Of a stretch of DNA of 64,000 bases, positions 6,789-11,200 are shown one piece after another. Source of the stretch: Escherichia coli (GTDB taxonomy: Bacteria; Pseudomonadota; Gammaproteobacteria; Enterobacterales; Enterobacteriaceae); NCBI RefSeq assembly GCF_013315695.1, contig NZ_CP054353.1; one strand, given 5' to 3'. The notes under the pieces were generated by a model, which worked only from the letters and a program-made list of their open reading frames with translations, had not been told where the DNA came from and made no database searches. Every line of letters starts with the position of its first letter. Position 1 is the stretch's first letter. The position numbers and the translations under genes were made by a program.

Positions 6789-7682
6789 ATGAATGGAAAA
6801 TTGCAAAGTTCGGATGTAAAAAACGAAACTCCGTACAATATTCCCTTATTGATTAACGAAAATGTGATCTCCAGCGGAATTTCTCTGATCTCGCTCTGGC
6901 ATACCTACGCCGACGAGCATTACCGGGTGATCTGGCCGCGGGACAAGAAGAAACCGCTTATCGCCAACTCATGGGTTGCGGTGTATACCGTACAAGGATG
7001 TGGGAAAATTATTTTAAAGAATGGCGAACAAATAACTCTGCATGGCAACTGTATTATATTTTTAAAGCCAATGGATATTCACTCTTATCACTGTGAAGGT
7101 TTAGTCTGGGAACAGTACTGGATGGAATTTACCCCCACCAGTATGATGGATATTCCCGTTGGTCAGCAAAGCGTTATTTATAATGGCGAAATTTATAATC
7201 AGGAACTCACCGAAGTTGCTGAGTTAATAACTTCACCAGAAGCAATAAAAAATAATCTGGCAGTCGCTTTTCTGACGAAAATTATTTATCAGTGGATTTG
7301 TCTTATGCACGCAGTCGGTAAAAAAGATCCACAACGGCGGCAAATTGAAAAATTAATTGCCACTTTACATGCCAGTCTACAACAACGCTGGAGCGTAGCT
7401 GATATGGCTGCCACGATCCCCTGTAGCGAGGCCTGGTTGCGTCGTCTGTTTTTACGCTATACCGGCAAGACGCCGAAAGAATATTACCTCGATGCGCGTC
7501 TGGATCTGGCGCTATCGCTATTAAAGCAACAAGGGAACTCGGTTGGCGAAGTCGCTGATACGCTCAACTTCTTCGACTCCTTTCATTTCAGCAAAGCCTT
7601 TAAAAATAAATTTGGTTATGCGCCGTCAGCCGTGCTGAAGAATACGGACCAGCACCCCACGGATGCCAGTCCACACAATTAA
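6789..7682 (+). CDS. yidL: AraC-family transcriptional regulator YidL (297 aa from ATG 6789)
   Basis: C-terminal AraC-type HTH region ([10 protein letters not shown]..., [14 protein letters not shown]). Confidence 0.85.
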
Positions 7683-9001
7683 CGTAACTCTGGCCAGTAC
7701 GCTTTGTTGGCCTCCAGCAACTCATCCAGAATAGCTTTGGCGACCGAGGCGCTCGGTACCGTTTTCGACAACGTAATCGCCTGCCACAGGTGCTGATATG
7801 AACGCTGTTCCCAGGCGTCCACGACCAGTTTTTCCACCGCCACTTGCTGACTCATTAACCCTTTCTGAAACTGCGGGATATCGCCGACCACCAGTGGTTC
7901 TGGTCCGTTGTGCCCGACCAGACACGGGATTTCGACCATCGCTTCATCATCAAAGTTATGGATTGCCCCGTTGTTAGGCACAATCAGCAACATCCGCTCC
8001 TGAGTGTTGAAGGCAATCGCCGCCGCAAGATCGACGATGTATGACGCATGTTCGTCAATTTCCAGCTTGCCCGCCGCTGAATTTCCTGCCGCCGTAATGG
8101 CGCGGCAAGCATCGAAAACCTGTTTCTCGCGATGCTCCATCACCTCATTCGCGCGGGTATGTTCAGGGTTGGAATGCTGAACGACATAATCCGGGAAGAG
8201 ATAATATTTCAGATAGGTGTTCGGCAATGTATCCGGGTCCAGTGCCTGGACATCCCGCGCTTTTGCATAGGTGTCGTTCCAGCTCGCTTCAGTATGTGTA
8301 TCTTGCTGCGGTGGAACATAACCGTGCTTAGAGACATATTGCCGCAGCTGGGGCATCAGGTCGTTGCCCTGCAAATCTTCAATTGATGTCCACCAGCCAA
8401 AGTGGTTCAGGCCGTAGTAGCGCACGCGCATCTGTTTGCGATCTTGCAGCCCAACAATTTGCGCCATCCGGCTTTCAATACCGATTGGCATGTCACAGAT
8501 GTTGAGGATTTTCGCATTCGGGCGCAGACGACGCGTGGCTTCTGCGACAATGGCTGCCGGGTTGGAGTAGTTGAGCATCCAGGCATTTGGTGAATATTTT
8601 TCCATATAATCCACCAGTTCCAGGACGCCGCCAATGGAACGCATGCCGTACGCTATTCCGCCGGGTCCGCATGTTTCCTGACCAACAACGCCGTGGCGCA
8701 GCGGGATTTTTTCATCCAGTTCGCGCATCGGGTATTTGCCGACGCGGATGTGCGCCATGACAAAATCAACGTCGCTGAATGCCACTTCAGGATCGGTGGT
8801 GTAACTAAACGCAATGTCCGGCGCTTTTTCTTTAAGGATGACTTTACAGGCTTCGGCAATCACTTCCTGCCGCGCACCATCGTTATCATAAAATTTCAGT
8901 GCACGAAGCGGGAAACGGTCCTGATTCGCCAGGAGCATCAACACGATGCCTGGCGTAAAGGTGCTTCCACCGCCTGCGACAACCACTGAGAATTTGGTCA
9001 T
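7679..9001 (-). CDS. glvG: Glycoside hydrolase family 4 6-phospho-glucosidase (GlvA/GlvG-like), full length 440 aa
   Basis: N-terminal NAD-binding motif [18 protein letters not shown] typical of GH4 enzymes; uninterrupted 440-aa frame. Confidence 0.8.
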
Positions 9002-10617
9002 TATACTGCCTCCGTAATGGCAACATTTTCTGCTGATTGATGAGAATTAATTAAGCTATCGAGCTGTTCACGCAGCTGGGATACATGCAAACCAATGATC
9101 ACCTGAATGGCATCGCCACTACGGAAGACGCCGTGCGCTCCCAGCTTTTTAAAGACTTCGTCATCCAGCGTTTGTGACATGTCATGCAGTGCAATACGTA
9201 AACGCGTCGCGCAATTGTTGATGCTGGAGATATTGCCGACCCCGCCCAGGGCTTGCAGGATACCGGCAGCCTGATCCAGCTCTTTTTTTGGCTCTGCCGC
9301 GGTGGTTTGGCCTCGCGAGGCTTTATATTCGGCTTTTGAGTAGAGTTTCACTTCCGCATCTTCACGTCCCGGCGTGCACATGTTGAATTGCAGAATCAGG
9401 GTGCGGAAAACCACGAAGTACAGCAGGGTAAAGCACAACCCAATGGCGATTTGGGTCAGCATCATATCCGCGTGGTTGCTGAACATCGGGATCCAGTTTT
9501 GCGGTAAAACCTGGTCAATCAGACCTCCGCCCATGTTGCCCACCACACCAAAGAGGTACATCACGGTCGACATTGAGGCCGCCAGCACGGCGTGTACCGC
9601 AAACAGCAACGGTGAAATGAACAGGAAGGTAAATTCCAGCGGTTCGGTAATTCCCACCAGCATGGCGGTTAAGGTTGCAGGGATCAGCAAGCCCGCCACT
9701 TTTACCCGATTTTCCGGTGCAGCAGTGAAGTACATTGCTAAAGAAATGCCCACGGCACCAAAGATTTTTGAGTTACCGTGCAGGGCAAAACCGCCTTCCG
9801 GGAACAACGATTTCAGCGGCTCGGCGCTCAAACTGAACTCTTGCAGATGCTGCGCCCAGTACATCTGAATGCCGCCTTCAACAGCTGCCGGACCAAAGAT
9901 AAACGGTCCGTAGATGAAGTGGTGTAAACCGGTTGGGATCAGAATACGTTCGAGGAAGGTGTAAACCCAGACCCCAAGCGCACCCGCCGAACGCAGGAAC
10001 GCTTGCAGAGATTCAATCCCCATTTGTACTTTTGGCCAGCCGAGCAACGTCAGCCAGGCGCAGGGGATCATCACCAGGAAGGCGATAATCACCACATAAG
10101 ACGTCCCCTGGAAAATGCCGAGAAACACCGGCAGTTTTTTATCGAACAGACGGTTATGCAGCGCCGTCACAATGCCGGAAATGATAATTGCGCCGATAAT
10201 GCTGGTATCGAGGGTTTTAATCCCGGCCATCATTGTCAGACCGCTACCTGCCACCGCGTCCTGAGTGAAATCGACGCCGAAGTAGCTTCCCCAGGTCATT
10301 CCCATCGCGTTGATGAAATAGTTCCAGGTCAGGAAACTCACCATCACCGCCAGACAAGCTCGCCCCTGCGCTTGCTTAGCAAGGCCAATGGGTAAACCGA
10401 CAGCAAAAATCAGCGGCATATTACGGAATACCGTCCAACCGCCCTCTTCAATAATATGTACGATTTGCGCGAATAAACTGTTCGGATCGGTCAGTGATTC
10501 CCCGACAAACATCGGGTTTTGCAGCAAGATGGCAAGACCCACCACAATCCCGGCGAAGGGAAACAGCAGCACTGGCGTGAACATCGCGCCGCCAAAGCGT
10601 TGAATTTGACTGAGCAT
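9001..10617 (-). CDS. glvC: PTS glucoside-family EIICB component, single 538-aa polypeptide (GlvC plus GlvB equivalent)
   Basis: Polytopic EIIC region followed by a C-terminal EIIB-like domain with an active-site-like cysteine (NNCATRLR); start ATG 10617 preceded by AGAGGA; the ORF-track start at 10878 adds 87 aa without an SD. Confidence 0.8.
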
Positions 10618-10912
10618 TTCCACATCCTCTTTTCTCAATTCTGTAAGTAGGAAGCCTGATTGGTTATGCGGCAGGCCTGGAGCGAGGATAGGAAGATGCG
10701 ATCGGCAGAACATGACGACCCAATGGGATTCGTGATCGCTTTCATGCTTTTCGTTGGGCGGTAGAGATCTACGTTTTCGCAAAAAAGTAGACATCTGTGA
10801 GCACTGGTACACAGCAACGAACACATCTTTAAAAAAAAGATGTTTTTTCAATCGATTAAGCAGAACTTGTGGGCGCATTACCCGGGCTTGCAGGCAAAAA
10901 AGAGATCTAGAG

Positions 10913-11200
10913 ATGATCTACAAAAGCATTGCGGAGCGGTTAAGAATTCGACTTAACTCCGCGGATTTCACGCTAAACAGCCTTCTTCCCGGTGAAAAAA
11001 AGCTGGCGGAAGAGTTTGCGGTATCGCGGATGACCATCCGTAAAGACATTGACCTGCTGGTAGCGTGGGGGCTGGTGGTCCGCCGCCACGGTAGCGGCAC
11101 TTACCTGGTGCGCAAAGATGTACTGCATCAAACCGCCAGCCTGACCGGGCTGGTGGAGGTGTTAAAACGCCAGGGAAAAACGGTCACCAGCCAGGTGTAA
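10913..11200 (+). pseudogene. yidP: GntR-family regulator YidP, N-terminal 95 codons only; truncated by IS4, whose terminal TAA supplies the stop
   Basis: Winged-helix GntR motif (LPGEKKLAEEFAVSRMTIRKDIDLLVAWGLV); ORF ends exactly at the IS4 inverted repeat at 11198. Confidence 0.8.

Follow-up and report, generated by a model that had tools for sequence, protein, structure and literature searches.

A stretch of Escherichia coli DNA of 64,000 nt (the window) carries genes of an alpha-glucoside phosphotransferase system (PTS) beside the divergently encoded GntR-family gene yidP, which ends at an IS4 element (Table 1). The arrangement raises the question of whether the loss of YidP has released the glv genes from control, as was implied when a preliminary description proposed that they may be constitutively expressed in this strain. 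The state of the cassette, the relation of YidP to it, and the origin of the IS4 junction all bear on the answer.

Structure of the glv Cassette

The glvA/aglB-type gene (K-12 pseudogene glvG) encodes a GH4 protein with the full-length pair of N- and C-terminal domains (PF02056, residues 6–184; PF11975, residues 195–415), and its reading frame confirms the uninterrupted 440-residue enzyme of the preliminary description. The best solved match is a 6-phospho-alpha-glucosidase (6dux; E = 1e-275, 917 bits), which we take to be Klebsiella AglB. Bacillus subtilis GlvA (1u8x) follows at E = 6e-225 (750 bits), whereas 6-phospho-beta-glucosidases score 212 bits or less, which places the protein nearer to the alpha- than to the beta-specific GH4 enzymes. 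The motifs GGGS (residue 10), CDMP (residue 169), and NHFGW (residue 199) are retained; studies of GlvA assign catalytic and metal-related roles to the CDMP and downstream His residues, and a role also to the N-terminal GxGS residues. The E. coli protein is a predicted NAD/Mn-dependent 6-phospho-alpha-glucosidase of the glvA/AglB type, and is 86–92% identical to orthologues at Klebsiella, Citrobacter, and Raoultella loci.

The adjacent glvCB gene encodes an uninterrupted EIICB of 538 residues, again as first described (counted from the annotated start; the mechanically defined reading frame reaches 10878). A single chain carries both the EIIC (PF02378, residues 10–346) and EIIB (PF00367, residues 453–482) domains. 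It scores 959.2 bits on the alpha-glucoside IIBC model TIGR02005 (cutoff, 607.3) over model positions 1–524, and contains GITEP at residue 322 and NCATRLR with the EIIB phosphorylation cysteine at residue 468. The protein is a predicted AglA-type alpha-glucoside permease, and a single accession for it (WP_000952127.1) is shared by all three strains compared, of which MS 198-1 is more distant than MSB1_4I and AF14.

In Klebsiella and Bacillus, the homologues depend on the host EIIA-Glc (Crr) and allow cells to grow on methyl-alpha-glucoside, isomaltose, and sucrose isomers (PMC5309279). By analogy, these sugars are the likely substrates here. Arbutin, suggested earlier as a test sugar, is an improbable one, as it is a beta-glucoside and the enzyme is of the 6-phospho-alpha-glucosidase type.

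In K-12, the glvCB region has the same length (1617 nt) but carries a CAG to TAG change at codon 369 (Q369*) as well as P238Q, and the amber codon splits one EIICB into "glvC" and "glvB." K-12 glvG lacks 508 bp (gene positions 594–1101) between GAACCACT microhomologies, and the frame is consequently shifted. Sequence comparison thus bears out the preliminary description of K-12 glv as split or cryptic, with glvG a pseudogene. The contrast with K-12 is real, but intactness was overstated as a noteworthy trait, since 1649 of 5426 complete E. coli genomes have the segment that K-12 has lost (about 70% lack it). The gene yidP is absent altogether from about 19% of complete genomes, and about 60 other Enterobacterales species also carry the pair of genes for 538 and 440 residues. 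The window holds the enterobacterial alpha-glucoside PTS cassette in its ancestral, undamaged form as regards glvCB and glvA; the divergent yidP, disrupted here, is part of the same cassette. This corrects a K-12-centred view: "glvC," "glvB," and "glvG" are pieces of an alpha-glucoside cassette of two genes, which about 30% of complete E. coli genomes have intact and which is conserved across Enterobacterales. The neighbouring yidJ gene is frameshifted in this strain.

Table 1. Positions of the features of the glv–yidP–IS4 region in the window.
Feature	Position	Strand	Remarks
GH4 6-phospho-alpha-glucosidase gene (glvA/aglB-type; K-12 glvG)	7679..9001	-	440 aa; reading frame uninterrupted
Segment of the glucosidase gene missing from K-12 glvG	7901..8408	-	508 bp; alignment with NC_000913.3
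Single-chain alpha-glucoside PTS EIICB gene, glvCB (K-12 fragments glvC and glvB)	9001..10617	-	538 aa; without EIIA domain
Conserved -10-like hexamer, predicted glvCB promoter	10685..10690	-	TATCCT here, TATTCT in most genera
Conserved CRP-like site, CGTGA-N6-TCATG	10731..10746		Consensus resemblance only
Palindrome TGTCTAcTTTTt-N4-aAAAAnTAGACA (here GATCTACGTTTTCGCAAAAAAGTAGACA), candidate YidP operator	10766..10793		28 bp; 63-sequence alignment
Truncated yidP, codons 1–95 and TAA stop from IS4	10913..11200	+	GntR wHTH only; translation and Pfam
yidP codon 45, Ala to Asp (A45D), recognition-helix motif TIRKAIDLL	11045..11047	+	Translation comparison
IS4 left flank CACCAGCCAGGTG, one copy of the yidP target-site duplication	11185..11197		Comparison with MSB1_4I
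IS4	11198..12623	-	1426 bp; 16/18 terminal inverted repeats; transposase reading frame 11211–12557 (-)
Hairpin and T-run inside IS4 left end	11202..11227	+	Terminator-like site
IS4 right flank CCCCCCTTTGAG, duplication of the kup–ravA IS4 copy, not of yidP	12624..12635		Comparison with MSB1_4I
ravA, first gene of the inverted segment	12713..14209	+	Colinearity with MSB1_4I
mioC–mnmG interval, predicted to hold oriC	17795..18172		Gene positions transferred from MSB1_4I annotation

YidP and the glv–yidP Intergenic Region

In each of the 64 ortholog loci where both genes are matched over their full length, yidP is divergent to glvCB–glvA. This includes the Proteus loci, although their flanks differ and yidE and yidL are absent. 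Together with a conserved intergenic palindrome (see below), this arrangement makes it very probable that YidP regulates the cassette to which its gene belongs. Among solved structures, YidP is closest to the HutC-type repressors YvoA/NagR and DasR. The AraC-type YidL (6789–7682) was also considered as a glv regulator and was rejected, as it accompanies the cassette in only about one-third of loci. The literature searched contains no functional study of YidP (mentions are lists, Mu target sites, and unrelated words). The present analysis gives this transcription factor, still among the uncharacterised ones of E. coli, a concrete, testable role and a candidate operator.

The preliminary description held that YidP retains only its DNA-binding N-terminal 95 residues, and the IS4 boundary after codon 95 agrees with this; the first bases of IS4 supply TAA, which is why the remnant reading frame stops where it does, and the terminator-like site just beyond would end yidP' transcripts. 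The remnant keeps the GntR wHTH (residues 3–64) and has lost the UTRA effector/dimerisation domain. Intact YidP (238 residues in the AF14 orthologue) combines the wHTH with UTRA at residues 87–224, and the window copy therefore does not have the two-domain HutC architecture. RefSeq annotates the identical remnant in MSB1_4I as a pseudogene. A further change at an invariant helix residue, A45D, went unmentioned in the preliminary description: codon 45 encodes Asp in the window and MSB1_4I, and Ala in K-12, AF14, MS198-1, and 73 of 73 ortholog matches.

The positions of the glv and yidP promoters can be inferred from conservation only, because a scan for sigma-70 consensus promoters on both strands of 10560–11260 found nothing. 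A conserved block in an alignment of 63 intergenic sequences provides the predicted glvCB -10 box. The predicted transcription start lies about 60.5 bp downstream of the centre of the CRP-like site, and the sequence CGTGATC is present in 54 of the 63 regions. Farther upstream, the 28-bp palindrome is ungapped in every one of the 63, with near-invariant half-sites exactly 21 bp apart; in Proteus, both halves are altered symmetrically (GATCTA...TAGATC). The half-site TGTCTA resembles TGGTCTA, one half of the NagR/DasR dre operator, and a GTCTAC-like element is present at about 10904–10909. Measured from the predicted glv start, the centre of the candidate operator is about 101 bp upstream, farther out than the CRP-like site. 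Such a position is not classic for a repressor, and the palindrome may act mainly in autoregulation of yidP.

Together, the CRP-like site conserved at about -61 and the empty consensus scan suggest that the glv operon would remain subject to catabolite control. "Constitutive" is thus too strong a term for glv, whose expression, if any, would probably still require CRP. An outward promoter of IS4 driving glv is likewise without support, given the same empty scan.

IS4 and the Probable Inversion of the oriC Region

The element belongs to the IS4 family by its size (about 1.4 kb), 18-bp imperfect repeats, and single DDE transposase (NF033592, 304 bits; RefSeq "IS4-like element IS4 family transposase"). 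It has no matching direct target duplication of 11–13 bp, since CACCAGCCAGGTG on the left faces CCCCCCTTTGAG on the right. MSB1_4I contains two copies, one in yidP with the 13 bp CACCAGCCAGGTG at both ends, as in a simple insertion, and one between kup and ravA with the 12 bp CCCCCCTTTGAG at both ends. The mismatched flanks of the window element, each from a different MSB1_4I copy, point to recombination between two IS4 copies rather than a fresh insertion. Consistent with this, the two halves of the window match opposite strands of MSB1_4I at 99.99% identity, and window 11197–64000 is colinear with MSB1_4I 5225331–5278133, up to the rpmH/dnaA boundary.

Judged by its flanks, the window IS4 is a chimeric recombination product at the predicted junction of an inversion of about 72 kb carrying oriC, the atp operon, and dnaA. 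As a consequence, ravA follows the element and the 3' part of yidP is not adjacent. Neither the chimerism nor the inversion appeared in the preliminary description. The two parental IS4 copies are identical in sequence, so the crossover point within IS4 is not locatable, and the reciprocal junction (kup–IS4–'yidP) falls outside the 64,000 nt analysed. The oriC-bearing interval now lies about 7 kb from the glv promoter, compared with about 66 kb in the uninverted order. A deletion between yidP and ravA was rejected as an explanation, because the halves lie on opposite reference strands and the window contains the oriC-to-rpmH region.

The kup–ravA IS4 is common to 36 genomes and the yidP IS4 occurs in only two complete genomes, which orders the events: the kup–ravA copy is older and the yidP insertion came later. 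MS 198-1 was rejected as a third yidP::IS4 genome, as its annotation puts IS4 in yidJ and yidP is intact. The chimeric element is a clear case of an IS-driven inversion that shifts oriC by about 60 kb, which matters when assemblies of this clone are compared.

Possible Consequences of YidP Loss and Alternative Explanations

We consider it reasonably probable that the observations fit together as an intact cassette, loss of yidP to IS4, an inversion, and inducer-independent glv expression through loss of a repressor. An older IS4 copy sat inverted between kup and ravA; a later insertion destroyed yidP after codon 95 (the remnant also having A45D); and homologous recombination between both copies would then have flipped about 72 kb including oriC, the atp operon, and dnaA, leaving the order yidP'–IS4–ravA. 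Intact YidP would be a sugar-phosphate-responsive repressor that binds the candidate 28-bp palindrome, and its loss would make glvCB–glvA expression inducer-independent, with cAMP-CRP, EIIA-Glc (Crr), and the general PTS still needed. The inversion would be nearly neutral, as it carries oriC along and so keeps gene orientation relative to the replication forks.

The arrangement could instead reflect a misassembly over the identical 1.4-kb repeats, with the simple yidP::IS4 insertion of MSB1_4I as the true order. The identity of both IS4 copies would permit such an error, the yidP'–IS4–ravA join is seen in none of the 5426 complete genomes, and two near-identical genomes have the uninverted order. 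However, colinearity to the dnaA boundary fits the end of a finished, dnaA-rotated chromosome, and natural inversions around oriC between inverted IS copies occur often and can revert; we regard an artefact as unlikely. A somewhat larger, though still minor, chance attaches to the idea that glv is silent in E. coli regardless of YidP, because its promoter is weak or an inducer pathway is missing, so that the IS4 insertion is neutral decay without derepression. Species-wide decay is consistent with this (the 508-bp glvA segment is missing from about 70% and yidP from about 19% of complete genomes), as are the frameshift in yidJ, the lack of a consensus promoter, and A45D in the remnant, which looks like relaxed constraint. 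Identification tables score E. coli as negative for methyl-alpha-glucoside fermentation, so causes unrelated to YidP may keep glv expression low. Against silence stand the full-length glvCB and glvA with intact catalytic motifs, the unchanged EIICB (WP_000952127.1) in MSB1_4I, AF14, and MS 198-1, and the retention of the -10 box, CRP-like site, and palindrome.

If YidP were a required activator, or a co-activator with CRP, its loss would turn the intact operon off. A palindrome at about -101, upstream of the CRP-like site, lies where activators or co-regulators are more typically found, but the closest characterised relatives (YvoA/NagR and DasR; HutC, TreR, and PhnF models) are repressors, and sugar phosphates typically release the UTRA-domain regulators encoded beside PTS operons. 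We regard an activator as quite improbable. It is very improbable that the 95-residue fragment still binds the operator and, unable to sense inducer, acts as a non-inducible repressor. Its wHTH is complete by Pfam, an in-frame stop closes it, and an IS4-borne terminator follows; yet the UTRA dimerisation/effector domain is gone, half-sites 21 bp apart presumably need an oligomer, and A45D alters an invariant helix residue.

The reading based on repressor loss extends, more tentatively, to the possibility that in a human-gut E. coli clone a natural YidP knock-out has activated an alpha-glucoside PTS that is otherwise silent, which on present evidence we hold to be doubtful. If so, the clone could draw on isomaltose and isomaltulose from the diet, as well as on related sucrose isomers, and YidP would be an alpha-glucoside repressor acting via a conserved 28-bp split palindrome beside a CRP site. 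The strain is a natural yidP null mutant, and close relatives that keep yidP, such as the near-identical AF14 (NZ_OZ546925.1), are available for comparison. Taken together, intact glv, yidP loss, and inversion are ordinary strain-to-strain variation, with nothing unexpected for E. coli population genomics.

Comparison With Known Systems

The window cassette shares its chromosomal locus and about 99% nucleotide identity with K-12 glvC–glvB–glvG, and has none of the K-12 lesions (Q369amber, P238Q, and the frameshifting 508-bp deletion). With Klebsiella pneumoniae aglA/aglB and B. subtilis glvA/glvC (malA/malP), it shares a two-gene design of EIICB, without EIIA, and a GH4 enzyme. The class of regulator differs from that in B. 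subtilis, where the glv operon is regulated by the RpiR-type GlvR; here it is of the HutC/GntR type.

Intact YidP shares the wHTH and UTRA domains with HutC-subfamily GntR repressors of sugar-PTS operons (NagR/YvoA, DasR, TreR, and MngR), and all are encoded divergently beside a PTS operon. YidP differs from these repressors in that its candidate half-sites are 21 bp apart over an A/T-rich spacer instead of abutting, and in that the gene is destroyed in this strain.

One paper (PMC1550401) is said to discuss IS-mediated chromosomal inversions spanning the origin in Shigella. The predicted inversion resembles these, and the rrn-mediated inversion of W3110, in recombining inverted repeat copies, in including oriC in the segment, and in having mismatched target duplications at the junction. 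It differs in that the repeat is IS4, the segment is small (about 72 kb), and one endpoint is the regulator gene of a sugar operon.

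The glv Cassette and Its Neighborhood

The window is E. coli chromosome that is 99.99% identical to MSB1_4I (NZ_LR898874.1), a relative with a simple IS4 insertion in yidP, except for one rearrangement and five small differences. Its gene order is yidJ and yidK (-), yidL (+), the genes for the GH4 glucosidase (glvA, called glvG in K-12) and EIICB (glvCB) (both -), the yidP remnant yidP' (+), IS4 and ravA-viaA (+). The preliminary description of this sequence, an intact glv cassette beside a truncated yidP, is confirmed in every detail.

Table. Coordinates of the glv cassette, the IS4 element and the conserved intergenic islands.
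Feature	Position	Strand	Description	Basis
GH4 glucosidase	7679-9001	-	440 aa, both GH4 domains	
EIICB	9001-10617	-	538 aa from RefSeq start, EIIC-EIIB on one protein	
Island 1			Shine-Dalgarno region of glvCB	63-sequence alignment
Island 2	10690-10685	glv strand	-10-like hexamer, TATCCT here, TATTCT in most genera	
Island 3	10731-10746		CRP-like site CGTGA-N6-TCATG	Conservation
Island 4	10766-10793		28-bp palindrome TGTCTAcTTTTt-N4-aAAAAnTAGACA	Conservation
yidP'	start 10913	+	Cut after codon 95; IS4 gives immediate TAA stop	
IS4	11198-12623		1426 bp, inverted repeats 16/18	

Open reading frames, domains and motifs bear out that the GH4 gene and the single-chain EIICB gene are uninterrupted. 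The best solved matches of the GH4 protein, the 6-phospho-alpha-glucosidase 6dux (E = 1e-275) and B. subtilis GlvA (1u8x; E = 6e-225), far outscore beta-specific GH4 enzymes, and the motifs GGGS, CDMP and NHFGW are found. EIICB scores 959 bits against the alpha-glucoside IIBC model TIGR02005 and has the motifs GITEP and NCATRLR, the latter with its cysteine. RefSeq labels this protein 'PTS sugar transporter subunit IIB', though TIGR02005 fits its entire length; the source of the equivalog model NF007255 is the K-12 GlvB fragment. That the K-12 genes are cryptic or split, as initially described, holds in direct alignment with MG1655: the glvC/glvB region is likewise 1617 nt, but carries P238Q and TAG in place of CAG at codon 369, and 508 bp bounded by two GAACCACT microhomologies are missing from glvG, with a shifted frame.

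Elsewhere in the window, yidJ (about 3425-4910, -) lacks 8 bp (GCCGCCAG) at 4808 relative to MSB1_4I, so that its sulfatase-like frame is shifted after residue 34; unless this deletion is an assembly difference, yidJ would be a second inactivated gene in the glv neighborhood. A long polar fimbria operon of the lpfA-O113 type lies between glmS and pstS (about 32272-37253). In a type III effector-like pseudogene (42510-45010), the homopolymer at 42578-42586 is A9, compared with A8 in MSB1_4I, both out of frame. An IS1 copy splits tnaB (low-affinity tryptophan permease; about 55471-57495), as in MSB1_4I, and tnaA and tnaC are intact.

A Chimeric IS4 and a Probable Inversion

MSB1_4I carries CACCAGCCAGGTG on either side of its yidP IS4, and CCCCCCTTTGAG on either side of a second IS4 in the kup-ravA interval, which has the opposite orientation. 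In the window, the only IS4 is bordered on the left by the yidP duplication and on the right by that of the kup-ravA copy. From 1008 to 12624, the window is colinear with the MSB1_4I minus strand around 20-32 kb; from 11197 to 64000 it follows the plus strand, starting at 5,225,331 and reaching the end of the record, where the rpmH/dnaA boundary lies. Judged from these flanks, the IS4 is a recombination junction, which the preliminary description missed. By recombining homologously, these oppositely oriented copies would have inverted about 72 kb containing ravA, viaA, asnA, oriC, the atp operon, glmUS, pst, tnaA, yidC, rpmH and dnaA, on to yidE, and kup, beyond the window, should now have the 3' part of yidP as its neighbor. 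The yidP'-IS4-ravA junction may instead be a repeat-induced misassembly, as the two IS4 copies are identical and the junction was found in no complete genome of the collection.

If the inversion is real, the kup-ravA copy, common to 36 complete genomes (IAI39 and CE10 among them), indicates that an old IS4 was followed by the new yidP insertion and then by inversion. Since the inverted segment takes oriC along, fork-relative gene orientation is preserved and oriC is shifted by about 60 kb; we infer that the inversion is nearly neutral. IS-mediated inversion is here an ordinary event. An IS4-containing query has 18 matching places in the MSB1_4I genome, whereas the median for E. coli genomes is 2, which suggests IS4 expansion in this lineage. 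At both target sites (window 11160-11197 and 12624-12650), the duplication is enclosed by an A-run and a T-run separated by roughly 20 bp (GGAAAAACGG...GATTTTTGA; GAAAAATA...CTATTTTAG), a pattern that fits the reported target preference of IS4.

Frequency in E. coli

Of 5426 complete E. coli genomes, 1649 have the 508-bp segment that K-12 lacks, scored as present at a coverage of at least 80%, and the O157:H7 and O55:H7 lineages are among them; yidP is carried by 4383 genomes and missing from about 1000. At least three locus states thus occur: the full cassette (about 30%), a K-12-like glvG deletion with yidP (about 50%) and a yidP-less state (about 19%). These counts indicate that the locus is decaying species-wide and that the intact cassette, a common polymorphism, is its minority but still frequent state. 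IS4 within yidP is common only to MSB1_4I and OZ547117 among complete genomes (in a third apparent case, rejected, the IS4 sits in yidJ), and the knock-out is rare but ordinary.

YidP as Regulator of the Cassette

As initially described, IS4 leaves YidP only its DNA-binding N-terminal 95 residues: the GntR wHTH is kept and the UTRA domain is gone. The remnant also carries A45D (11045-11047), within the TIRKAIDLL motif of the wHTH recognition helix, at a position that is Ala in K-12, in the yidP-intact strains AF14 and MS198-1 and in 73/73 ortholog matches. This change is either decay following inactivation or an earlier inactivating hit. With the UTRA dimerization/effector domain lost and the recognition helix altered, the fragment is unlikely to be functional.

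In the literature searched, no functional characterization of YidP was found; it is named only in lists of uncharacterized GntR-family factors. Relatives scanned in one genome per species gave 77 distinct loci, about 70 with a YidP ortholog (at least 53% identity). Wherever the tblastn alignments of glvCB and yidP both began at residue 1 (64 loci), yidP is divergent to full-length glvCB and glvA orthologues (64/64), including four Proteus species, where YidP identity falls to just 53% and the genes that flank the cassette in E. coli, yidE and yidL, are missing. YidP is thus very probably a dedicated regulator of the cassette. The other candidate, yidL, was rejected because no more than about a third of loci have it beside the cassette.

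The glvCB-yidP intergenic alignment contains four conserved islands (Table) in otherwise divergent sequence. The half-sites of the palindrome are exactly 21 bp apart without gaps in 63/63 sequences, and in Proteus both halves change symmetrically; the palindrome is a likely candidate for the YidP operator. One more GTCTAC-like element immediately precedes the yidP start codon. Among solved structures, YidP is closest to the repressors YvoA/NagR and DasR, and among NCBIfam models to those of HutC-, PhnF- and TreR-type repressors, so that the best guess is that YidP represses glv and a sugar phosphate lifts this repression. With the palindrome placed upstream, YidP may instead act as an activator or anti-activator. 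The most useful outcome is that YidP receives a concrete, testable assignment.

Catabolite Control and Promoter Architecture

Constitutive glv expression upon YidP loss had been proposed. The connection between YidP and glv is now better grounded and plausible, but 'constitutive' is overstated, since the operon, even if derepressed, would likely stay under catabolite control and need EIIA-Glc. The Klebsiella and Bacillus homologues require EIIA-Glc and support growth on methyl-alpha-glucoside, isomaltose, maltitol and sucrose isomers (PMC5309279). Arbutin, suggested earlier as a test sugar, is an unlikely substrate because it is a beta-glucoside.

A sigma-70 consensus scan of the intergenic region found no promoter, which fits activator-dependent promoters. 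Assuming a start about 7 nt past the -10-like hexamer, the palindrome would be centered near -101.5 and the predicted CRP-like site near -60.5, the position that CRP occupies at class I CRP promoters.
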